The translations under genes and the position numbers were made by a program. Positions 3,193 through 44,601 of a stretch of 64,000 nucleotides of DNA are shown one piece after another. Source of the DNA: Escherichia phage ETEC-TG. The stretch lies in the sequence record OR786310.1. One strand, given 5' to 3'. The stretch's first letter is position 1, and each line of letters starts with the position of its first letter. The notes beneath the pieces are model-generated. The model saw nothing but the letters and a program-made list of their open reading frames with translations, did no database searches and was not told the origin of the DNA.

Positions 3193-3264
3193 GGCCCTGT
3201 AGCTCAATGGGAGAGCTGTCGGCTCATAACCGATAGGTAGCTGGATCGAAACCAGCCAGGGCCA
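3193..3264 (+). tRNA. tRNA-Met or Ile2 (anticodon CAT)
   Basis: Hand-folded cloverleaf: acceptor GGCCCTG/CAGGGCC, anticodon loop CT-CAT-AA, T-loop ATCGAAA, encoded CCA. Confidence 0.7.
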
Positions 3265-3269
3265 CCAAC

Positions 3270-3341
3270 GTCTTTATGGTGTAATGGATAGCACAGGAGT
3301 CTTCTAAACTCTTAGTCAAGGTTCGATTCCTTGTAAAGACA
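3270..3341 (+). tRNA. tRNA-Arg (anticodon TCT)
   Basis: Acceptor GTCTTTA/TAAAGAC, anticodon loop CT-TCT-AA, T-loop TTCGATT, CCA follows. Confidence 0.7.
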
Positions 3342-3540
3342 CCAGAACATTTTAACATGAATTAGCTCAAGTGATTTGAACCCACTACTGATCATGGTGG
3401 CAGAGAATGAGGCAAGTATGTCAGACATTATAAACAAAGGCCACGGTTATATTAGAAGACATAAATGCTCGAAGAGCACCGTTCGTGGAGAACGGGGGTT
3501 GGTGGAGTCACCATTCATGGTAAAATGTTTTAAAAAACTA

Positions 3541-3570
3541 TTGACAACTAACATTATTTTATGTTAGATT
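3541..3570 (+). promoter_or_regulatory. sigma70-like extended -10 promoter inside the tRNA cluster
   Basis: TTGACA - 18 nt - TGtTAGATT. Confidence 0.5.
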
Positions 3571-3578
3571 ATAAGTAT

Positions 3579-3666
3579 GGAAGGGCAAATCGACGTGGCG
3601 ACGAAAACGGTCTTGAAAACCGCCGAGCTTGAAAGAGCCTTGGGAGTTCGACTCTCCCTCCTTCCG
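3579..3666 (+). tRNA. tRNA-Ser (anticodon TGA), class II
   Basis: Acceptor GGAAGGG/TCCTTCC, anticodon loop CT-TGA-AA, long variable arm, T-loop TTCGACT, CCA follows. Confidence 0.65.
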
Positions 3667-3673
3667 CCAGATT

Positions 3674-3756
3674 GGTAGATTGGTGAAATGGTAGCCACGA
3701 CAGTTTGCTAAACTGTAGTCGGAAACGGCGTGTAGGTTCGAGTCCTACATCTACCG
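3674..3756 (+). tRNA. tRNA-Ser (anticodon GCT), class II
   Basis: Acceptor GGTAGAT/ATCTACC, anticodon loop TT-GCT-AA, long variable arm, T-loop TTCGAGT, CCA follows. Confidence 0.65.
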
Positions 3757-3900
3757 CCAAGTTCTTTTTAATATAGCTTACTTTAGCAGAGTAAATCTTC
3801 GGCAAGTGGCGGTAACCACTTTACCGATAACTCATAGTTAGTGGTGTGAACACTGGCTATTTTAAAAAGAATTTAAAAAGAATTTAAATATTAGTATTTA

Positions 3901-3985
3901 GGTGAGTTAATTCCGTAGGGGTAGCGGGGCAGACTGTAAATCTGTTATCATTGCGATTCGGGTGGTTCGACTCCATCACTCACCA
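3901..3985 (+). tRNA. tRNA-Tyr (anticodon GTA), class II
   Basis: Acceptor GGTGAGT/ACTCACC, anticodon loop CT-GTA-AA, long variable arm, T-loop TTCGACT, CCA follows. Confidence 0.65.
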
Positions 3986-3994
3986 CCAAATTAA

Positions 3995-4077
3995 GATGAG
4001 TTGGCTGAATGGTTTAAGCGGCGGACTGTTAATCCGTGTTCGAAAGAACGATATAGGTTCAAATCCTATACTCATCG
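3995..4077 (+). tRNA. tRNA with class II scaffold and apparent GTT (Asn) anticodon; identity uncertain
   Basis: Acceptor GATGAGT/ACTCATC, anticodon stem GCGGA/TCCGT with loop CT-GTT-AA, 15-nt variable arm with GAAA hairpin, T-loop TTCAAAT, CCA follows. Confidence 0.5.
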
Positions 4078-4170
4078 CCAGAATTATGGACTTGTAGAGT
4101 TAAGGTAAACCCCCAGTCGCCAAGAGGCTTCTGGAATTGCAGGTATCGAATCCTGCCGAGTCCCAGCTTT

Positions 4171-4242
4171 GCTCCTATAGTATAATGGCTATTACAACGG
4201 TTTTGTAATCCGTGGATCTCTGTTCGATTCAGAGTGGGAGCA
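4171..4242 (+). tRNA. tRNA-Thr (anticodon TGT)
   Basis: Acceptor GCTCCTA/TGGGAGC, anticodon loop TT-TGT-AA, T-arm CTCTG-TTCGATT-CAGAG, CCA follows. Confidence 0.65.
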
Positions 4243-4522
4243 CCAACACAACATTAAGAGCACTGTGATTGATCGTCGTATCCTGTGCACAAGGTCTGTT
4301 CGAAAGACAGTGTTCTTAGTATTGTGTTGATCACACAAAAAAAGAGTTACCTGAAACTTGACCGGAGTAGGGTTGGATGGGGCAAAAGAAGAAGCGGCTC
4401 TCCCATCGACAGCAACGAAGAATAATATTTGACTTTGGTTTTGTATTATTTTAAGTTAGCTTACCGAACGTAGGGCTAGTCACCCAACGGGATACTCGTC
4501 ACTGTCCCACTCAATAAAACTA

Positions 4523-4552
4523 TTGACAACCAATAGTAAAATGTAGTATAGT
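4523..4552 (+). promoter_or_regulatory. sigma70-like promoter upstream of tRNA-Gly
   Basis: TTGACA - 18 nt - TATAGT. Confidence 0.5.
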
Positions 4553-4563
4553 AAAGATGTAGG

Positions 4564-4634
4564 GCGTTCTTGGTGTAGCGGTAGCATTCCGTCCTTCCAA
4601 GTCGGCGGCACGAGTTCGATCCTCGTAGAACGCT
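4564..4634 (+). tRNA. tRNA-Gly (anticodon TCC)
   Basis: Acceptor GCGTTCT/AGAACGC, anticodon loop CT-TCC-AA, T-arm ACGAG-TTCGATC-CTCGT, CCA follows. Confidence 0.65.
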
Positions 4635-4735
4635 CCAAATTATTTAATAAAGGGTTGCCAGAAAACTTTCTCTTTTACTCATGGTTTTCTCCTTCTCTCA
4701 CACCTCTTCTGGTTGCCCTTCATTAAATGATTTAT

Positions 4736-4808
4736 TGGTTTGTAGTGTAGTCCGGTAGCACACGACACTTTGACTGTCGTAGGTTTGGTTCAAATCCAGA
4801 CAGACCAG
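4736..4808 (+). tRNA. tRNA-Gln (anticodon TTG)
   Basis: Acceptor TGGTTTG/CAGACCA, anticodon stem CGACA/TGTCG with loop CT-TTG-AC, T-loop TTCAAAT, CCA follows. Confidence 0.65.
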
Positions 4809-4884
4809 CCATATAACAAAGGTGAGTCACTACCTCAAGTGTGAAGTTAAAAACGAGGAGCCGCCGAACACTTTCTTTTGCGGT

Positions 4885-4958
4885 GTACCTTTAGAATGTT
4901 ATGACGGAATTTAGCTCAGTTTGGTAGAGTGTACGCTTTGGGAGCGTATTGTCGCAGG
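4885..4958 (+). tRNA. tRNA-Pro (anticodon TGG)
   Basis: Acceptor CGGAATT/AATTCCG, anticodon stem TACGC/GCGTA with loop TT-TGG-GA, T-arm GCAGG-TTCGAAT-CCTGC, CCA follows. Confidence 0.7.
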
Positions 4959-4967
4959 TTCGAATCC

Positions 4968-5038
4968 TGCAATTCCGACCAATTAAATGTTTCGTAGTTC
5001 AATGGTAGAACCCACGACTGATAATCGTGAGATACAAG
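4968..5038 (+). tRNA. tRNA-Ile (anticodon GAT)
   Basis: Acceptor TGTTTCG/CGAAACA, anticodon stem CACGA/TCGTG with loop CT-GAT-AA, T-loop TTCGATT, CCA follows. Confidence 0.7.
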
Positions 5039-5119
5039 TTCGATTCTTGTCGAAACAACCAGTTTCCCGTTAGACTTACAGGATAAGAGTTCCACAATTT
5101 ATTGTGACGCTGGTTCGAA

Positions 5120-5195
5120 TCCAGCACGGGATACATAATAGCGGGATAGAGGAGTCTGGTCGTCCTCGCCAGTTTCATATGCTGGAGATCATTGG
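5120..5195 (+). tRNA. tRNA-Met or Ile2 (anticodon CAT), mismatched 1:72 pair
   Basis: Anticodon stem CCAGT/GCTGG with loop TT-CAT-AT, T-arm ATTGG-TTCAAAT-CCAAT, acceptor 3' TCCCGCC, CCA follows; position 1 (A) does not pair with 72 (C). Confidence 0.6.
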
Positions 5196-5333
5196 TTCAA
5201 ATCCAATTCCCGCCTCCAAATATCGCTTGCCAGCGGTATCTTTGAAGACCTTGCCTGGTTCCTTCTAAGATGGAGGGGTGCGACTCCTTAACGCACAATT
5301 ATAATAAAGCATTTCAAATTAACAGTATTTATT

Positions 5334-27883: not shown

Positions 27884-30037
27884 ATGAAACAAGCTATATT
27901 TACTGTCACGCGAGACAAGAGAGTAAATGCGAGTTCATTTAACTACACGACTGTTGACGGAACAGCAGTCGCTGGTAGAGATTATATTGCAAAATCGGGA
28001 ACACTTGTGTTCCCTGATGATGCTGATTCTGCTACTATTGTGGTTGAAGTATTTGAACGACCAAAGAACTCAATAGATCTTAACTTCTCCCTCCAAGTTT
28101 CAGGGATTAGTCAAAATAACATGATGGTTGAAACAACCATCAATTGTATTATAACTACTATCCAAGAAAATACTACTCCAATAACTTGGACTACAAAAGA
28201 CGTTAAAATGTTCTCTCCTATGTATTGGACAATAGATTCTCAAGCAACGGAAAGTTGTTCTATTGTATCTCATGGAGACTCTTTTACTGCAAGATTTGTA
28301 AACAGAACAACAGCAGGTTTGGCAGGGGTTATCTGGAGCACAGTTGACAAATATGACCATAAAGGTGTTGGGTATTTGCCTCACACAGATTTAAGTTCAG
28401 AGAAACTTTGGTTTAAAATGGAAATTAGTCAAAACATGCCAGGTTTTAAAGAAGAACCTTTGGTGCCGACTTTGACTGTAACTCTCCTGGATAAAAGTGT
28501 TCATTATGTCAGTTTAGGATTCTACGCTTCAGATATTTCAGAAGATGGTAAAACAGCCACAATAAAGTTAGATTTTGGTAATATCTTTTCTGGCCCTAAT
28601 AATGATATTCCTTTGGATATGAGTGCTGTAGATAATATTTTCTTCTCTTTGATTACAGCAAGGTATGAAAAAATAGAAGAGGTTGTACCTATTGACAGTC
28701 AAGAGGCTTGGTTTACTTTCACTCTTCTTGAACCTACTTCTGGTTACAGTATGATGAAAGTCAGCAACCTTGTCCAGCCTGAACATGATATTCGCATGTG
28801 CACATCTTATGATGATATGTATAACCTGACTCCAGAGAGAGTTATTTATAATACATATGCACTAGGTTATCGTGGAATGATTAACCATTACAACGGAATG
28901 TCTCACTATTATGAGTTCTCATGGAACGGAACATCTTGGGCTTTAAATAGATCTGTTTTCCTGAATCCGGCTACAGAAGCTTGGCTAAATAGTTTCCATT
29001 CTATAGCAAACGAGAAGGGCTACACGATAATGAACTCTTTAAGTTTTGAATTGATGAGCACAGTTTGTCCTGTAGAATGGGTCCAGCATGATTGGAACGA
29101 TGCTCTTGCAGCAACAGGGTATGAACCTCCTAGTTATGTGTTGTCTCCAACTATTGACGAAGGTATGGAATATTTGCAAAATGTTATTAACAAAATAGCA
29201 TCTATTTCGCAAGCTAATAATATTCCAGTTGTCATTCAAATTGGTGAGCCTTGGTGGTGGTATAATACAGCAAGTAAAATGCCTTGCATATATGATTACA
29301 CTACCAAACTGGCATTCAACACAGAAACAGGCTTATTTGCACAAGATGCAGGAACAATAGATAATTATAAAACAGGAACACCGTTTGACGAATACTATGC
29401 ATTTTTGTCTCGTAAACTAGGGTTAAGAGTTACAAAGTTTGCAACAGACACTAGAGCAACTTATCCAGGAGCTAAAGTAACATTGCTGCCATTCTTACCA
29501 TCAATTATCGGCAATGGTTTAATGGAGAAAGTTAACTTTCCGTCTGATTACTACATTCCTGAAGCTTTTGATTTTTATTGTTCAGAGTGTTACGACTGGC
29601 TTCTGGAAGGTAAAATGATGAAAGCATTTGATGCAATTACCATACCACATGAAAAATTAGGTTTTGAATATTCTGATATTCACTATCTTGCAGGTTTTGT
29701 TCCAGATGCTACTCTTGCACCTTTGTATGGCTTTGATCCTGAATCAAACTACCGCACGTATCTTTGGAAAATGATTATAGGTAACATAGTGTTGAACGCC
29801 AATAAGTTCAATGGACTTACACAATATATATGGGCCTATCCTCAAATAATGCACGATTCTATCACGGTAGTTAATTCTCAATCCCAAGTTTTCTATATGG
29901 GTAACGTGCCTTTGAACGCTTATTTACAGGATATCACTCTTAAACAGGTAAATGTTGAGATTGCCACCATAAGTGGAATTACATTAGCCACTAAATCTGG
30001 AGAAGATTTAGTAACAACACAAAAATTTTATATATAG
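27884..30037 (+). CDS. tail-associated protein with N-terminal Calx-beta-like domain
   Basis: N-terminus NYTTVDGTAVAGRDYIAKSGTLVF matches Calx-beta signature by eye. Confidence 0.4.
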   Translation: MKQAIFTVTRDKRVNASSFNYTTVDGTAVAGRDYIAKSGTLVFPDDADSATIVVEVFERPKNSIDLNFSLQVSGISQNNMMVETTINCIITTIQENTTPITWTTKDVKMFSPMYWTIDSQATESCSIVSHGDSFTARFVNRTTAGLAGVIWSTVDKYDHKGVGYLPHTDLSSEKLWFKMEISQNMPGFKEEPLVPTLTVTLLDKSVHYVSLGFYASDISEDGKTATIKLDFGNIFSGPNNDIPLDMSAVDNIFFSLITARYEKIEEVVPIDSQEAWFTFTLLEPTSGYSMMKVSNLVQPEHDIRMCTSYDDMYNLTPERVIYNTYALGYRGMINHYNGMSHYYEFSWNGTSWALNRSVFLNPATEAWLNSFHSIANEKGYTIMNSLSFELMSTVCPVEWVQHDWNDALAATGYEPPSYVLSPTIDEGMEYLQNVINKIASISQANNIPVVIQIGEPWWWYNTASKMPCIYDYTTKLAFNTETGLFAQDAGTIDNYKTGTPFDEYYAFLSRKLGLRVTKFATDTRATYPGAKVTLLPFLPSIIGNGLMEKVNFPSDYYIPEAFDFYCSECYDWLLEGKMMKAFDAITIPHEKLGFEYSDIHYLAGFVPDATLAPLYGFDPESNYRTYLWKMIIGNIVLNANKFNGLTQYIWAYPQIMHDSITVVNSQSQVFYMGNVPLNAYLQDITLKQVNVEIATISGITLATKSGEDLVTTQKFYI

Positions 30038-30045
30038 GAGTAAAA

Positions 30046-32298
30046 ATGTCAACTACAATTACTAATTTACCCGAAACATCAAAAGTTAATGGTTCTGATT
30101 ACCTGGTTTTAGACCAACCTGATAAGACTGTTAAAAGCACAGTTTCCAACTTTCTTACTGACACTGGGGTGGTTTTAGCCACCCAGTTGAAAGATACAGA
30201 TGGAGCTACCAAGTATCCAGAACTTCAGATTGCACGCTGGCGAGACGAGGGAGATATCAGAGGGTGGGGCACGGAAACAAACGGTGATGTTACCGAAGCA
30301 ATCATTGAGGCGGTAGCGGCGACAAGCGGCACTATCATTGTGCCACCTGGTGACTATGTTGCCACACCTACGCTGGCCGAAGTTCCGGCTGTGCTGAAAT
30401 TGCTGTCCCGCGCTGATTTTCGTGGCAGGTTGACCATTAATCTGCCAGCTGGGACGGTCAATCTGAACGAGCAGACAGTCATAAATTCTAACAGGAGTAA
30501 TCTGTGCAAGGTCATTGGCGTAGCGCTAAACACGAGCGTTACAGGGCTTGTTTCTGTAGCTGGGTCAAGCAAGCAATATTCGATAACTCTGTCCCTGGCA
30601 GATGCCTCGCAGGTGTCAGTCGGTGACTATGCCATCTTCAGGCACGATCTGACGGGAACTGGTTTTTTCCACATACACTGCGGGGGCTGGCGGGTAACGG
30701 CTGTGTCCGGCAATAACGTGACCGTGCTCAACACATGCGTCTTGGATTCATTCCCTTCGTCAACCGTTACCGGTGGATCAGTCTCCATTATCAAGTCCGT
30801 TCTGAAATACACCGGCTGTGATGGGATTAGACCGGAGGGCGGCGACTGTATCGGAATTATTGATAATGTCGCCATCGTGGGTGATTACAACCTTGCTACC
30901 GGCGCAGGGACAATCGGTGCTCACGGCGTAATATCCTCAACACCCGTAGTAGTCACCGACGCCGCCAACGCATCCAACAACGTAGCGAATATGGCGGCAG
31001 CGCTGGCCCTGGGACGAAATATTGCAATCAGTGCCTGGGGTGAGCAAGGGCTGGCAGTGTCGGGTCGCTCTGCGCTTGTGTGTAACTTCATCGCATCCTG
31101 TGCCAACCGTAAGCGTGGTATTTATGCGGAAGGTGCTCATATACGCGGGAAATTTATGATCGCCTCCGGAAACGGAGAGGACGGCATTATTTCAGATACC
31201 ACTGGATTTGTGCAGGCTGCATATGCCGTTTGCTCGGGTAACGGATTAAACGGGTTCTGGTCAACAAACCTCTCTCTTATTGCGGCGGCAAGGGGAGTGG
31301 CTTGCTGTAACAAAACAAATGGTGTGGAGGCAAGGGGGCAGACAAGGCTCGCATTTGATCTCGGCCTTTCCTACGGAAACGTTCTAAACGGTGTCAGCGC
31401 CTCTGATGGGGGCATGATTGACTTTGATGGCGGCATGTCAAGAGACAATCTCGTTGACGGGATCGCAGCGACATACAATGCAGTAGTTGACGCGAACAAC
31501 GCCTCCAGTACCACCAATGGTCGTTACGGTACTAACGTGACCTCCGCGTGCATTATCATTTCAGGGACTGGTACTATATCTGGGAATACAGGGGCGGATG
31601 TTCGTGATAACGGCAATGGGATGGTTGTCCGACCAGACGGCACGATCTACCCATTCACTGGGGTCGCACAGGGTAATCTGTCGCTAAGAAACACCGTCAG
31701 CGGCGCGGGGGTTGACATTGTTCCTACAAGTATAGGTGACTTAATTCTGAGCTTTAAAAACTCAGCAGGCGGAACGCTTAACCCGTTATACAACTTCAAA
31801 GCCGACGGTACTCAGTACCCTCAAAATGACGCGACGCAAAGCCTTGGGCGTGCCGCTAACCGATACAATGTCGGTTTCTTCGCTGGCGGAACACAGTCAA
31901 CTTCAGATGCCACACTTAAAGACCCTATCCGGGAGTTCAATCAGGCCGAACTTAATGCAGCAATGCGAATCGCAAAAATGCTGGGTTTCTGGACATGGCT
32001 GGATGATGCCGGAAAACGGCTTCATGCAGGGACAACAGTGCAAGCGGTACTGGAGGTGCTGGAAGAAGAGGGACTCGACTGGCGTAACTATGGTTTCATC
32101 GGATTTGATGAGTGGGATGATGAATATATCCCAGTAACCATTGAGGTAGATGGCGAAGTCGTTGAAACAGGGGAAACGAAATTAGTGCGTGAGGCTGGTT
32201 CTGTCTGGCAACTGCGCGATCAGGAATTTGACCGTTTCGTTATGCGTGGACTTTCTGAAAGGCTGAGTATTATAGAAAGTAAGCTGGATTTACTGTAA
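30046..32298 (+). CDS. tailspike / receptor-binding protein with C-terminal intramolecular chaperone domain
   Basis: Gly/Asn/Val-rich beta-helix-like repeats; STSDATLKDPIREF (S620-D621) resembles the S74 chaperone autocleavage motif; body is GC-rich relative to the genome. Confidence 0.5.
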   Translation: MSTTITNLPETSKVNGSDYLVLDQPDKTVKSTVSNFLTDTGVVLATQLKDTDGATKYPELQIARWRDEGDIRGWGTETNGDVTEAIIEAVAATSGTIIVPPGDYVATPTLAEVPAVLKLLSRADFRGRLTINLPAGTVNLNEQTVINSNRSNLCKVIGVALNTSVTGLVSVAGSSKQYSITLSLADASQVSVGDYAIFRHDLTGTGFFHIHCGGWRVTAVSGNNVTVLNTCVLDSFPSSTVTGGSVSIIKSVLKYTGCDGIRPEGGDCIGIIDNVAIVGDYNLATGAGTIGAHGVISSTPVVVTDAANASNNVANMAAALALGRNIAISAWGEQGLAVSGRSALVCNFIASCANRKRGIYAEGAHIRGKFMIASGNGEDGIISDTTGFVQAAYAVCSGNGLNGFWSTNLSLIAAARGVACCNKTNGVEARGQTRLAFDLGLSYGNVLNGVSASDGGMIDFDGGMSRDNLVDGIAATYNAVVDANNASSTTNGRYGTNVTSACIIISGTGTISGNTGADVRDNGNGMVVRPDGTIYPFTGVAQGNLSLRNTVSGAGVDIVPTSIGDLILSFKNSAGGTLNPLYNFKADGTQYPQNDATQSLGRAANRYNVGFFAGGTQSTSDATLKDPIREFNQAELNAAMRIAKMLGFWTWLDDAGKRLHAGTTVQAVLEVLEEEGLDWRNYGFIGFDEWDDEYIPVTIEVDGEVVETGETKLVREAGSVWQLRDQEFDRFVMRGLSERLSIIESKLDLL

Positions 32299-39806: not shown

Positions 39807-41831
39807 ATGAATTTAACAAGACCTAATAGTGCGATAGCCGATCTGGTAGAAGCTACTTATCGAAAACGTCGCAGCTTTGAGGCAGGTTTTACATTACGTA
39901 ATTCCCGTGAAGTTTTGCTGTTAGCAGCAGAAGGGAATTATTACCAATGGAAAGGAACTTTTCCTAAAGTTGTTCCAGCAAACTCTACGCCAGCCACCAC
40001 AGGTGGTATTTCTTCCCTTGCATGGCAAAGTGTTGGGACTGCTGATGATATAGCAATTATCAATGCCAAGTTTACGGCAATGCAGCAACAGATTGATGAT
40101 CTGTCGGAAACAATACCTGAAGCTGGTAAATCGGCTTATCAGATCGCACTTGATAATGGTTTTGTTGGAACAGAAGCACAATGGCTTGCTTCTTTGAAAG
40201 GGGATACTGGTGCTCAACTTAATATTAAAGGATCATTAGCAAACACTAGTGAACTACCATCCACAGGTAACGTTGCAGGGGATGGTTATATCGTAGGTGA
40301 TGTAATCTACGCTTGGGATGGTTCTGTTTGGAAACTTATTTCTTCTCTTGGGCCAGAAGGTAAATCAGCTTACGAGGTATGGTTGGCAGATGGTAATACA
40401 GGATCTGTTTATGATTTTCTTACCTCTATAAAAGGTGATAAAGGTGATGTTGGTCCTACAGGGCCACAGGGAGCACCTGGTGTTAACGCCAACGGTTTTG
40501 ATTATCGTGGGGATTTGCCTTCTACAAGTAACTTACCACAACCAAACTCTGAAAACGTAAGTCAAGCTTATTCTATCAATGGTAATCTTTATGTCTCTAA
40601 TGGGACAGCTTGGGTCAACATGGGTAATATTGTTGGTCCTCAAGGTCCACAAGGTGAGGCAGGTAAAGACGGTCTTGATGGAACAGATGGAGATGAAGGG
40701 AAATCTGCATATCAAAGTTGGCTGGATGCTGGTAATGAAGGGACAGAAGTAGATTTTATTGCCTCACTTAAAGGTCCAAAAGGAGACAAAGGTGATCAAG
40801 GAGAGCGAGGTCCACAAGGTGAACTAGGTCCACAAGGACCAGTGGGTGCAACAGGATCAGGCTTAGATATTATCGGGGTTCTGAACAGTGAAGCTGAACT
40901 TCCTCCTACCGGAGAAGTAGGTGATGCATATAAAATTAATAATGATTTATATGTTTGGGTTCAAGATGCTACGGAATGGATGAATGTTGGCAGTCTTGGA
41001 GGAACATCAATTACAGCTAAAGGTCATGTTCCGAACAGTGAAGCTCTCCCTGTTTATAATAACTATGGCGATGCCTACTTAACTGAAGACACTAGTAATC
41101 TTTACATCTATACCTACGATCAAGACACCAATTCCGCATCTTTTGTTGACATGGGAAGTATTAAAGGCGACAAAGGTGAAAAAGGGGATAAAGGAGATAA
41201 GGGTGATCCTGGAACAAACGGAACCAACGGTACTGATGGGACCAACGGTAAGGACGGCGCACAGTGGTTTGTAGCAACAACTAATCCAGTTGCAGGAGAC
41301 GGTGTTATCAATGATTACGCCTTCAATACTACCACTGGAGCAGTGTTTAAGAAAACAGATTCTTCTACGTGGACGCTTATAGGCACTCTTCCTAGTATAC
41401 CAGAAGCCCCTCAAGACGGCTTGACGTATGGTCGGTCTGATGGAAACTGGATCGAAATATCAGGATCAGATCCTACGGAAGCTATAACACCAACTAGAGT
41501 TACAGCAGGTTTCATGGAACTTGAAACAACTGCTGCCAACTCTGGAGCATCTTGGACTCCTTCTGGAACTTCCAATATGTATGTTGTTACAGTAACTGAT
41601 GCTCTGACAGTTGGAGCATGGCCTGGTGTCACTGGCTCTACAAAACCTAAAGCGTTTTCAGCAATGATTTATTTGATTCAAGATACAACGGGACACACGG
41701 TTACACTAGATGCGTCTTATGGAGCACTAAATGATACAGAAATAGCAACTGCTGCTAACGCAGTAACAATTTTGCAATTAACGTATCCTGGTGTGGGTGA
41801 TATCGTGGACATGGTTGTTGTAACACGATAA
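39807..41831 (+). CDS. tail fibre protein with collagen-like and phage-fibre repeats
   Basis: G-x-x runs (GDKGEKGDKGDKGDPGTNGTNGTDGTNGKDG); three copies of GKSAYxxWLxxGxxGTExxxxxSLKG. Confidence 0.6.
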   Translation: MNLTRPNSAIADLVEATYRKRRSFEAGFTLRNSREVLLLAAEGNYYQWKGTFPKVVPANSTPATTGGISSLAWQSVGTADDIAIINAKFTAMQQQIDDLSETIPEAGKSAYQIALDNGFVGTEAQWLASLKGDTGAQLNIKGSLANTSELPSTGNVAGDGYIVGDVIYAWDGSVWKLISSLGPEGKSAYEVWLADGNTGSVYDFLTSIKGDKGDVGPTGPQGAPGVNANGFDYRGDLPSTSNLPQPNSENVSQAYSINGNLYVSNGTAWVNMGNIVGPQGPQGEAGKDGLDGTDGDEGKSAYQSWLDAGNEGTEVDFIASLKGPKGDKGDQGERGPQGELGPQGPVGATGSGLDIIGVLNSEAELPPTGEVGDAYKINNDLYVWVQDATEWMNVGSLGGTSITAKGHVPNSEALPVYNNYGDAYLTEDTSNLYIYTYDQDTNSASFVDMGSIKGDKGEKGDKGDKGDPGTNGTNGTDGTNGKDGAQWFVATTNPVAGDGVINDYAFNTTTGAVFKKTDSSTWTLIGTLPSIPEAPQDGLTYGRSDGNWIEISGSDPTEAITPTRVTAGFMELETTAANSGASWTPSGTSNMYVVTVTDALTVGAWPGVTGSTKPKAFSAMIYLIQDTTGHTVTLDASYGALNDTEIATAANAVTILQLTYPGVGDIVDMVVVTR

Positions 41832-41835
41832 CAGA

Positions 41836-41859
41836 AGCCCCGAAAGGGGCTTTCTTTTT
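41836..41859 (+). terminator. Rho-independent terminator (GNRA tetraloop)
   Basis: GCCCC-gaaa-GGGGC followed by TTTCTTTTT. Confidence 0.65.
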
Positions 41860-41872
41860 ATGGAGGGTTTAA

Positions 41873-44545
41873 ATGTTTCCAATTCCAATATTTACTATTA
41901 TGACCAGCACTGGTGTCGTTCCTCTGCCAGCGGGTATTGTTAAAAAAGTAATCACTTTAGATTACCCAGATAATGCTGGTAATTCTAACAGCAGTTTAGC
42001 AATTTTGCTTAATGATGGTAGATTGTTTACTCAAGGCGCAAACCTTTTTGGTGAGATTGCAGATGGAACTCGTAGTGCACGATTCAATAATTTCCACTTA
42101 GCTTCTACTGTAGTAGCGGATGTGTTTACCGCAGATCGTTGTTTTGTTATTAAAACTAACAGCGGGGGATGGCAATATTCAGGATTGACAGCAGGGTTGG
42201 TAGGATCTATAGCAGCAGGTGGTACGGATGCATGTGTAACTACTTGGACCAGCTTTCCATCTGTAATAACAGGGACTATCTCTTTAGCCAATCTTAAAGA
42301 GGTTAAAGGAGGGTATAACAATACTCTTTGGTTAATGAATAGCGGTGTTCTTTATGGATCGGGTCAAAACACAGTAGGCAGTTTAGGTGCAAGCACTACT
42401 AACGAAGTTTCTACTCCCCGTCAGATAACAAGTTCAGCAGTTGCTTTTGATGCAGGTTATAACCAATGCTCTTATGTCAACAATGCGGGAACCTTGCGTG
42501 TTTGTGGAGCTAGTAAAGGTTTAGCAGGTAATAATAACACAACAACCGCTTTTGTCAATGCCACGATATCCACTACTGAAACAGTGTATGTCAAAGATTA
42601 CATCAATACAGTTTCCCAGACAATAGTTGTAGGAGATACCTCCGGTGGCGCGGGTACAGTAAACTACTTATATGTTAGATCTAATACAGAAACAACCTAC
42701 ACTAAACTGGACACCTTTGCAGCAGGTTTCTCAACATGGAAATTTCCACCAAGCCGCCACTCTTTTTTCGTTGGGATCAATAATTCCTTGTGGGCTATTG
42801 GTAAGAACTACACTGCAAACTTAGGTTTGGGATATGATTCTGCGAGCGGAGATCCACTCCAAGTGGGAAAACCAGTTAAACCTGAAGGAGTGGGTTCCTG
42901 GGATATAAACAAGCTCACAAGCGTTCATACGTTGAATATGGATATTACTAACCAATTAGGTTATCAAGGAACCTTTTTCGTTTATAACGGGGATATGTAT
43001 TATTCCGGTATTTGGAAAGATGGGAAAGCCTCGTATCTGTTCAATAGTGGTCTAAACTATAATAAATTCACACCAATAGCAAGCTCCGTGATTACGGGGG
43101 ATGTTCTGGCAACTGGCTTAACTACAGATTCTTTAGGAATTTGTATTGTAGGTGGAACTAAACAGTTGACACATTCTGTTAGCCCGGAAGGAGGTAAACT
43201 TTTCAATATTAAATACACTTCTTCTGTCCCTGCAAACATGACAATATCATCTACTGGTTTAATGACTTTCCATGCAGAAGGTGGTTTTGATGCAGGTATG
43301 ACAGCCTTAAACGCTGAAGGAACAACTTTATCAGATACCTCTGGAGGATATGCTTCAACATTGAGTGTTTACACCCCTAGCTTATCTGCGATGGATGTAG
43401 GAACAACACAAACAATGGTAGCAGAAATAACGCCAACAGGAGCAGCAAGCTTACCTGGTATGGTTGTTGAGTATACAACTACAGATCCTAATGTTGCTAC
43501 AGTAGATCCTACAACTGGTGTAATAACTGGTGTTGGTGATGGTGGTTGTAGAATTGGTTGCACAGCTACATATCAAGGTGTTGTTACCGCTTCTGATAGT
43601 TCTTATTTAACGGTGAACGCTGTTGCGGGAAAGGAGTTAGCTCCATCTCCGAGTAGTAGTTTAACGGTTCTAAACGGATATTTCAACCACTCGGCAGATG
43701 GGGCAATTACGTTCCCAATTTTATCGGGTACTGTCACACCAGCTAACTTTGTAGTTAAGGTGGATGACGTTGTAATACCTTCAAATAAAGTAATATTTAG
43801 AAATAAAGCTTTCTCTACAGTGGATAGTTATCCAGCAGGAGAATATAGACTGGCTATTGAATTTGCAAGTGCTTCAGTAGTGAATAGTGTTGATGTGTCT
43901 ATGGAAGCAAATCCAGATCTTTTAGAATTATGGGGCGGCAACAGAATTGGTTATTCTACAAGCCCAGCCTCACAATTCTTAAAAGGTTGTGCTAACTTAA
44001 GACGAATAACTTCTGATTGTTTTAGTAACACATCTTACACCGGAACATCTATAAGTGGTATCTTCTCTGGCTGTACAAGTTTGACAGCTATCCCTGAAGG
44101 ATTATTCAGTGATGCTTTATTTCCTTCAATGACAACAATGTCAAGCACGTTTGAAGGTTGTACATCTTTAACATCTATTCCTTCAGATTTATTTAAAAAT
44201 CTATCAAAAGTTACAAGATATTCTTACACCTTTAAAGATTGCACCTCTCTTGCAGAAGTTCCAGCAGGAATGTTTGATAATATTCCAACGAAAGTGACCT
44301 CTTTAACAGCTACATTCCAAGGTTGTTTAGCACTTACAGATTTTAATAAAATCTTTAATGACAACCCAGGGTTAACTGTTTGTGGTAAACGTGGAGCATT
44401 ATCTTCTTTCTTTAGTGGATGCACAAATCTTACAGGAACAGGAACAACATTAACAAATACATTAGGCGGAGTAGCTAATAGTTACCTATTCAGGTATTGC
44501 ACAAAACTTTCTGATTATAACAATATTCCTTCGGGTTATAAATAA
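41873..44545 (+). CDS. tail fibre/adhesin-like protein with C-terminal BspA-type leucine-rich repeats
   Basis: Seven approx 24-aa repeats F-x-G-C-T-S-L-T-x-I-P in the last approx 190 aa. Confidence 0.5.
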   Translation: MFPIPIFTIMTSTGVVPLPAGIVKKVITLDYPDNAGNSNSSLAILLNDGRLFTQGANLFGEIADGTRSARFNNFHLASTVVADVFTADRCFVIKTNSGGWQYSGLTAGLVGSIAAGGTDACVTTWTSFPSVITGTISLANLKEVKGGYNNTLWLMNSGVLYGSGQNTVGSLGASTTNEVSTPRQITSSAVAFDAGYNQCSYVNNAGTLRVCGASKGLAGNNNTTTAFVNATISTTETVYVKDYINTVSQTIVVGDTSGGAGTVNYLYVRSNTETTYTKLDTFAAGFSTWKFPPSRHSFFVGINNSLWAIGKNYTANLGLGYDSASGDPLQVGKPVKPEGVGSWDINKLTSVHTLNMDITNQLGYQGTFFVYNGDMYYSGIWKDGKASYLFNSGLNYNKFTPIASSVITGDVLATGLTTDSLGICIVGGTKQLTHSVSPEGGKLFNIKYTSSVPANMTISSTGLMTFHAEGGFDAGMTALNAEGTTLSDTSGGYASTLSVYTPSLSAMDVGTTQTMVAEITPTGAASLPGMVVEYTTTDPNVATVDPTTGVITGVGDGGCRIGCTATYQGVVTASDSSYLTVNAVAGKELAPSPSSSLTVLNGYFNHSADGAITFPILSGTVTPANFVVKVDDVVIPSNKVIFRNKAFSTVDSYPAGEYRLAIEFASASVVNSVDVSMEANPDLLELWGGNRIGYSTSPASQFLKGCANLRRITSDCFSNTSYTGTSISGIFSGCTSLTAIPEGLFSDALFPSMTTMSSTFEGCTSLTSIPSDLFKNLSKVTRYSYTFKDCTSLAEVPAGMFDNIPTKVTSLTATFQGCLALTDFNKIFNDNPGLTVCGKRGALSSFFSGCTNLTGTGTTLTNTLGGVANSYLFRYCTKLSDYNNIPSGYK

Positions 44546-44578
44546 GAAAAGGAGCCATTTGGCTCCTTTCTTTTATAA
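44546..44578. terminator. bidirectional terminator between convergent late and replication operons
   Basis: AAAAGGAGCC-attt-GGCTCCTTTCTTTT with A-run upstream and T-run downstream. Confidence 0.65.
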
Positions 44579-44601
44579 AAACTCTTTATAGATCAATAAG
44601 A

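Follow-up and report, generated by a model that had tools for sequence, protein, structure and literature searches.

The gene at 41873..44545 of a 64,000-nucleotide stretch of Escherichia phage ETEC-TG (sequence record OR786310.1; this whole stretch is referred to as the window) encodes a protein of 890 amino acids (aa) that ends in a solenoid of seven leucine-rich repeats (LRRs) of the BspA/TpLRR–DUF285 group. The solenoid belongs to one of several interchangeable C-terminal cassettes carried by this protein of the Phapecoctavirus tail-fibre locus, and the cassette, 306 residues long, on balance probably serves to bind the host surface. The open reading frame (ORF) is present in the ORF list on the plus strand, as an earlier sequence-only reading of the window had described it.

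A leucine-rich-repeat solenoid at the C-terminus

Six copies of the strict motif F..C..L start at aa 731, 760, 787, 815, 847 and 873, and a degenerate unit (FLKGCANL, F-x-x-x-C) beginning at aa 702 makes a seventh. When the whole protein or aa 691–890 was shuffled 20,000 times, F..C..L was counted at most 2–3 times. The units are 29, 29, 27, 28, 32, 26 and, for the terminal one, 18 aa in length (mean about 27–28). The sequence-only reading had counted seven tandem units over the last 190 or so residues, in agreement with the six strict and one degenerate units found here over 189 aa, and the three peptides that it quoted as examples all occur in the protein; its period of approximately 24 aa is too short for units of 26–32 aa. 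Its pattern F-x-G-C-T-S-L-T-x-I-P is complete only in units 2–4, units 1 and 5–7 retaining just F-x-x-C-x-x-L. The interval 43975–44510 that it assigned does hold the repeats, but it begins one base early in a stop-ridden frame (the codon of Phe702 is at 43976) and breaks off inside the last unit, which extends to 44542. Tandem Repeats Finder gave no matching array in the DNA; the repeat is visible at the protein level only. The cap motif of unit 7, C-x-x-L-x-x-Y-x-x-I-P-x-x-[WY], is common to 18 of the 94 homologues described below, and conservation among variants of the cassette carried here (cassette A) is high in unit 1 and in the terminal cap.

A Pfam scan of the whole protein gave only RCC1-like and Big_2 domains and a weak match to DUF285. 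LRR_5 was matched neither by the whole protein nor by the 306-aa cassette, the latter giving no Pfam match at E ≤ 1e-3. The C-terminus alone gave sub-threshold matches to LRR_5 (PF13306; aa 702–890, E 4.6e-4, 20.5 bits; last 231 aa, 19.5 bits; gathering cut-off 27.7), to DUF285 (PF03382; E 0.005, 17.0 bits, cut-off 25) and to the PARCEL repeat (TIGR02167; E 0.0027, 17.4 bits, cut-off 30). A homologue search found 94 relatives, with E down to 3e-42; all matches of the first such search were at most 405 aa long, full-length relatives coming from a second search with the full-length protein. Among the members of the alignment LRR_5 was matched by 61 of 95 (best 1.3e-69) and DUF285 by 35 of 95, and the family profile matched solved BspA-type structures [PDB codes 4fs7 (1.9e-35), 4gt6 (5.7e-28) and the TpLRR structure 6mlx (2.5e-12)]. 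At E ≤ 1e-3 the superfamily counts 14,415 cluster representatives, and giant proteins with multiple repeats are numerous among them.

In the full-length AlphaFold model (predicted local distance difference test, pLDDT, 82.7; predicted template-modelling score, pTM, 0.54) the domains fold separately, and the predicted order is shown to be a β-propeller, two immunoglobulin-like (Ig-like) domains, a low-confidence hinge (aa 585–589), a β-sandwich, a second hinge (aa 688–698) and the LRR solenoid (from about aa 700 to aa 890). A model of the cassette alone places the strands of the sandwich at 13–103 in cassette numbering. Short β-strands are predicted at aa 726–728, 755–757, 782–784 and 810–812, and their spacing of 29, 27 and 28 residues equals that of the motifs. 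A solenoid of tandem 20–30-residue units, each adding one short β-strand to a parallel sheet, is the fold of the LRR superfamily and is what the model shows; fold comparison likewise matched BspA/TpLRR proteins. Profile search and structure prediction had been set beforehand as the check that might refute the repeat, and the periodicity is upheld by both.

Repeats of the TpLRR/BspA type are about 23–24 residues long, a length exceeded by the units of 26–32 aa seen here. Because the period of the homologues is mainly 26–27 aa, with a minor mode at 23–24, the repeats fall between the Pfam families LRR_5 and DUF285; the DUF285 signature F-N-Q-D-I-S-x-W-D-x-S-N-V-T-x-M is missing from units 1–7. 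The proposal that these are BspA-type LRRs is borne out by the profiles, the relatives and the solenoid fold, but the period lies nearer to that of the 26-aa DUF285/PARCEL repeats and the protein itself scores under both Pfam gathering cut-offs.

Exchange of the C-terminal cassette

Roughly half of the related genomes share only nucleotides 1–1751 of the gene. The allele of phAPEC8 (gp086, 891 aa) has 97% identity over aa 1–584 and is unrelated after ...SSYLTVNAV; at the DNA level the similarity stops at about 43623–43626 and returns at about 44570. Comparison of window positions 44548–44569 with L002:6183–6204 shows that each cassette allele has its own terminator stem, with the T-tract and the downstream sequence in common, which places the recombination boundary inside the terminator. 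The cassette is made up of the β-sandwich and the LRR. In the full-length-protein search the same body was found to bear at least four cassette types, two of them of LRR type: A, the BspA-like LRR of this gene, with variants 46–91% identical over the LRR part; B, a PKD-like domain with canonical DUF285 repeats (MF.GC..FNQDIS.WD.SNVT.M), found in P0116–P0120 (metagenomic contigs of 151–157 kb); C, the phAPEC8 type; and D, another unrelated domain. Since P0116–P0120 carry DUF285 in place of the BspA-like LRR, two LRR-clan cassettes have been recruited to one site. Forms of about 565–573 aa also exist, and the one whose sequence was inspected (P0122) stops just past the junction. Cassette C has homologues at the ends of phi92-like 'lateral tail fiber' proteins and of siphovirus minor tail proteins.

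Third-codon-position identity between the window and phiWec188, both with cassette A, is 47% in the body and 75% in the cassette; between phAPEC8 and phiWec179, both with cassette C, the values are 50 and 98%. By this measure, with the cassettes more alike than the bodies in both pairs, cassettes are younger than the bodies beneath them, and the comparison indicates that they have moved horizontally between lineages, beyond what stronger purifying selection alone would produce. The gene thus combines a conserved N-terminus and allelic, horizontally exchanged C-terminal domains with a location in the tail-fibre cluster and homology to proteins annotated as fibres, as is characteristic of receptor-binding and lateral-fibre proteins.

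Directly 3′ of the gene in Mt1B1_P17 (L001:17701–18108) lies a free-standing 135-aa 'endonuclease' ORF, recognized from the record annotation and an HNH-like motif read by eye (HAHHCDY...LCPLHHEAWH); it has no Pfam match. This ORF accompanies the LRR cassette in Mt1B1_P17, PsgM04F, phiWec188/190, nepoznato and AV125 and cassette C in nieznany and ZCKP1, and is missing in the window (44546–44601) and in phAPEC8. Promotion of cassette exchange by a mobile endonuclease at the 3′ boundary is a speculative suggestion. In a 21-kb Logan contig (SRR10359460, L004:6001–7191) a 396-aa protein, P0001, is an in-frame fusion of residues 1–74 of the upstream fibre (the Tail_spike_N anchor) with the C-terminal 322 residues encoded by this gene. 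It corresponds to a deletion of about 40032–43577 of the window, with about 10 nucleotides of imperfect microhomology (CAA[A/G]GTGTTG) at the junction and the remaining locus normal, and may represent either a natural deletion mutant with the cassette on another anchor or an assembly artefact.

Possible roles of the cassette

The reading of the cassette as a host-recognition module, to which we lean without great confidence, is based on the hinged C-terminal position of the LRR in a fibre cluster, the polymorphism and horizontal transfer of the cassette, and the homology of the alternative cassette to fibre tips. The putative receptor-binding role of the LRR end is plausible. We infer that the protein is located in the virion and that the LRR binds a host structure, any ligand named for it being likewise putative. 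In this proposal the conserved 'body' of propeller and Ig-like domains would lie on the virion side, and a ligand-binding surface on the hinged LRR end would meet an E. coli envelope structure during reversible adsorption; swapping of the cassette type would then retarget or widen recognition. In seven cassette-A variants, a small sample, variability alternates along the predicted strand ahead of each motif Phe; this fits an exposed face in the model, and the variable residues on the predicted strands may form the binding face. Among the phiWec phages, phiWec188 and phiWec190 need yhaH, and phiWec179, phiWec181 and phiWec186 need flhD, with waaT needed by both groups (PMC12548472). The LRR cassette is carried by phiWec188 and phiWec190, and in the flhD group cassette C has been confirmed for phiWec179 only.

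A number of observations weigh against a host-recognition role. The correlation with yhaH and flhD is confounded, as TfpL also differs between the phiWec groups (PMC12695924), and YhaH, an inner-membrane protein, is unlikely as a direct ligand. Isolation on E. coli K-12 MG1655 has yielded phages of either cassette (for example, tuntematon and ukendt as against nieznany), and the cassette is therefore not the sole host determinant; DIJ07_P1 and DIJ07_P2 also differ in their cassettes. Resistance to 536_P1, which has the LRR cassette, was mapped to lipopolysaccharide core and capsule genes, with no cassette-specific receptor (PMC11495123). The monomer models consist of confident separate globular domains, unlike classical intertwined trimeric fibres. 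LRRs are also typical protein–protein adaptors. In the literature we found neither a proteomic or electron cryomicroscopy assignment of the 890-aa protein nor an experiment tying it to adsorption, and no orthologue of it could be mapped in the rV5 proteomics paper. Papers on a collection of avian pathogenic E. coli phages and on phages of extended-spectrum β-lactamase producers likewise contain no assignment for it.

LRRs are classical scaffolds for protein–protein interaction, and the domain might accordingly be an intra-virion docking module for another fibre, tailspike or chaperone of the phage that does not contact the host. The strong conservation of unit 1 and of the terminal cap would suit such a role, as would the multi-fibre 'Swiss army knife' of these phages with its unknown assembly map (PMC8594841). 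We nevertheless consider docking unlikely: the LRR is the hinged C-terminal end of the last gene of the cluster, unrelated folds replace it while the neighbouring genes stay the same, distal fibre ends elsewhere are homologues of the alternative cassette, and short forms without any cassette exist. A docking partner would need to co-vary with the cassette, and none was seen to do so.

Alternatively, the Ig-like domains and the LRR could together form a non-infective adhesin for mucus, animal-cell surfaces or environmental matrices, with no part in the selection of a bacterial host. In oral and gut bacteria, proteins of the BspA family attach to host matrix proteins; two Big_2 Ig-like domains are present here, and analogous proposals exist for Ig-like decoration proteins of phages and for BspA-type bacterial adhesins. 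The phages with this gene come from gut and sewage sources, and those with either cassette grow on K-12. Such an adhesin is nonetheless improbable, given that the gene sits in the tail-fibre locus and not in a head locus, that cassette exchange resembles the known behaviour of receptor-binding proteins, that the alternative cassettes are fibre-tip homologues and that a P2 gpI baseplate protein carries a fused LRR of the same type.

A β-helix depolymerase, that is, a tailspike-like enzyme in place of a binding LRR, is brought to mind by the polysaccharide-degrading tailspikes encoded by neighbouring genes and by a few pectate-lyase-type viral matches far down the Foldseek list, but is rejected as hardly credible. 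That the repeat is an artefact of chance or composition, as the sub-gathering Pfam scores of the protein alone could suggest, can be dismissed in view of the motif count (reached in none of the 20,000 shuffles), the strength of the homologues, the confident model with its matching strand period and the conservation of the domain across the cassette-A variants.

The broad host range of Phapecoctavirus-type phages (such as 536_P1, AV125 and the ESCO phages) makes them candidates for therapy and biocontrol, and which gene makes which of their fibres, and what each fibre targets, is still described as unclear (PMC8594841, PMC10844046). The cassette is a clean unit with defined DNA boundaries that can guide cassette-swap engineering and the hunt for receptors, and its value is as a precisely bounded candidate specificity module in therapeutically relevant phages rather than as a new principle. 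The analysis also flags LRR/DUF285 domains as a class in phage host recognition, a role only predicted in the searchable literature; the same domain type is present in tail modules of crAss-like, T4-like, P2-like and jumbo phages. It is tempting, if doubtful, to see in the BspA-like and DUF285 cassettes a distinct, widespread and unrecognized class of phage receptor-binding tips. If so, such tips would be monomeric, solenoid-shaped and hinged, as opposed to trimeric fibre knobs or enzymatic spikes; Phapecoctavirus-type therapeutic phages would possess a second, possibly protein-directed, receptor specificity; and this specificity would pass between lineages as a unit running from the conserved SDSSYL junction to the terminator, perhaps aided in some genomes by the free-standing endonuclease gene directly downstream.

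Genomic setting and comparison with known systems

The coordinates of the gene and its parts are collected in Table 1. Its description as tail fibre-like is upheld by the position in the tail-fibre cluster, by PHROG 11922 ('tail protein'), the match to which spans the full length of the protein, and by the gene order of the annotated relative Mt1B1_P17. There the gene closes the cluster, preceded by a colanic-acid-degrading tailspike and then a collagen-like fibre with a Tail_spike_N anchor and followed by replication genes in the opposite orientation. The gene shares 95–99.9% nucleotide identity with Phapecoctavirus-type E. coli myophages and matches 67 phage records. It was named 'TfpM1 (890 or 891 residues)' in a 2025 paper, according to which it is absent from phi92-like Justusliebigvirus (PMC12695924). 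The propeller is 39–42% identical to tail or 'lateral tail fiber' proteins of rV5-like and PVP-SE1-like phages, and N-terminal homologues carry the annotation 'lateral tail fiber protein with intimin domain'. A promoter scan did no better than its shuffles; a terminator is annotated in phAPEC8 at the position equivalent to the hairpin.

Table 1. Positions in the window of the gene, its domains and repeat units and adjacent features
Feature	Residues	Coordinates	Strand	Evidence
Upstream tail fibre 'TfpM2', Tail_spike_N anchor and collagen-like repeats		39807..41831	+	ORF list, Pfam, PHROG, gene order
Whole gene, last of tail-fibre cluster	1-890	41873..44545	+	ORF list; PHROG 11922; nucleotide identity; Mt1B1_P17 gene order
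All-β RCC1-like propeller, conserved 'body'	~8-400	41894..43072	+	Pfam WD40_RLD/RCC1; strands 8-401, high pLDDT
Two Ig-like (Big_2) domains, conserved junction end ...TYQGVVTASDSSYLTVNAV	~415-583	43115..43621	+	Pfam; strands 415-582
Exchangeable C-terminal cassette with stop and allele-specific terminator stem	585-890	43625..44569	+	phAPEC8 similarity breakpoints
β-Sandwich of cassette	~598-677	43664..43903	+	AlphaFold models, strands 598-677
LRR solenoid, seven units	702-890	43976..44542	+	Motif positions; shuffle test; sub-threshold LRR_5/DUF285/PARCEL matches; profile and fold matches
Unit 1, FLKGCANLRRITSDCFSNTSYTGTSISGI, degenerate motif	702-730	43976..44062	+	Motif positions; highly conserved among cassette-A variants
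Unit 2, FSGCTSLTAIPEGLF...	731-759	44063..44149	+	Motif positions
Unit 3, FEGCTSLTSIPSDLF...	760-786	44150..44230	+	Motif positions
Unit 4, FKDCTSLAEVPAGMF...	787-814	44231..44314	+	Motif positions
Unit 5, FQGCLALTDFNKIF..., 4-5-residue insertion	815-846	44315..44410	+	Motif positions
Unit 6, FSGCTNLTGTGTTL...	847-872	44411..44488	+	Motif positions
Unit 7, terminal cap, FRYCTKLSDYNNIPSGYK	873-890	44489..44542	+	Motif positions
Terminator-like hairpin (AAAGGAGCCATTTGGCTCCTTT and T-run)		44548..44569	+	Stem allele-specific; T-tract common with phAPEC8 allele

Elsewhere in the window, two large ORFs (27884–30037 and 30046–32298), one with Calx-beta and non-contractile-tail-sheath TIM-barrel domains and the other with an endosialidase-chaperone Peptidase_S74 domain, occur where Mt1B1_P17 has a single 687-aa ORF, and this region (27884–32298) is a second variable spot of the fibre locus. 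Ten clustered tRNA genes (Met, Arg, Ser, Asn, Thr, Gly, Gln, Pro, Ile and Met) lie at 3193–5218. Several records with host labels other than Escherichia [MG065650 (Campylobacter phage B15, 95.4% nucleotide identity), OR584014 (Pseudomonas phage PsgM04F), MH252123 (Klebsiella phage ZCKP1) and an Acinetobacter record] hold the gene, or a cassette 91–97% identical, within Phapecoctavirus-like genomes; the labels look doubtful, or the phages look polyvalent or like contaminants.

The sequence-only reading had called this repeat type unusual for a phage receptor-binding tip, which is too strong, as relatives sit in the tail modules of several phage groups. Both metagenomic relatives whose neighbourhood was examined, the two closest, lie in such modules, one in a crAss-like contig, where a 1074-aa Phage_tail_C protein immediately precedes it, and the other beside the sheath gene of a 192-kb T4-like contig. 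Similar domains occur in proteins of cyanophages, jumbo phages, Bacillus phage G and a Butyrivibrio phage, and many phage proteins in the BFVD viral structure library are already named 'BspA family LRR'. In the literature on LRR, BspA or DUF285 domains in phage fibres or receptor-binding proteins we found predictions only (Goslar) and no experimental case; a CASP16 match from this search was irrelevant. The Goslar case concerns peripheral virion-associated DUF7941 proteins of that jumbo phage, the predicted LRR/β-helix domains of which have been proposed to act in host recognition (bioRxiv 10.64898/2026.04.21.720040); they differ from the present protein in anchor module and phage family, no sequence relationship was found, and their function is likewise predicted only.

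Compared with the BspA/TpLRR proteins (PF13306; 4fs7, BACOVA_04585; 4gt6, F. prausnitzii; 4h09; 6mlx, T. pallidum), whose period is the shorter, the phage protein lacks the context of a signal peptide or cell-wall anchor and ends in a cap motif of its own, ...C-T-x-L-S-D-Y-x-x-I-P-x-x-[WY]-K. Adhesins of BspA type are bacterial proteins, secreted or anchored at the surface, with host-tissue ligands; the gene here belongs to the tail-fibre cluster of a lytic phage. The DUF285/PARCEL repeats (PF03382, TIGR02167) are similar in period to the main mode of the homologues and match weakly and directly, under the cut-offs, and a canonical DUF285 cassette occupies the identical position on the same phage body in P0116–P0120, but the repeats here are without F-N-Q-x-I-x-x-W-D-x-S-x-V-T-x-M. 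In phAPEC8 gp086 the gene, its position, the cassette boundaries and the N-terminal 584 residues correspond, whereas the C-terminal 307 aa form an unrelated non-LRR domain with no Pfam match. The 'tail protein I' of the P2-like Klebsiella phage ST16-OXA48phi5.4 (gp35) contains Big_2 and then the same repeat type, with a similar terminal motif (...CAGLDDYDDLPGNW), attached to the gpI baseplate protein domain Tail_P2_I. It differs in its approximately 20 repeats as against seven, in its N-terminal anchor and in a sequence identity of only about 32%, and, unlike the 890-aa protein, it passes the thresholds of both LRR_5 and DUF285.

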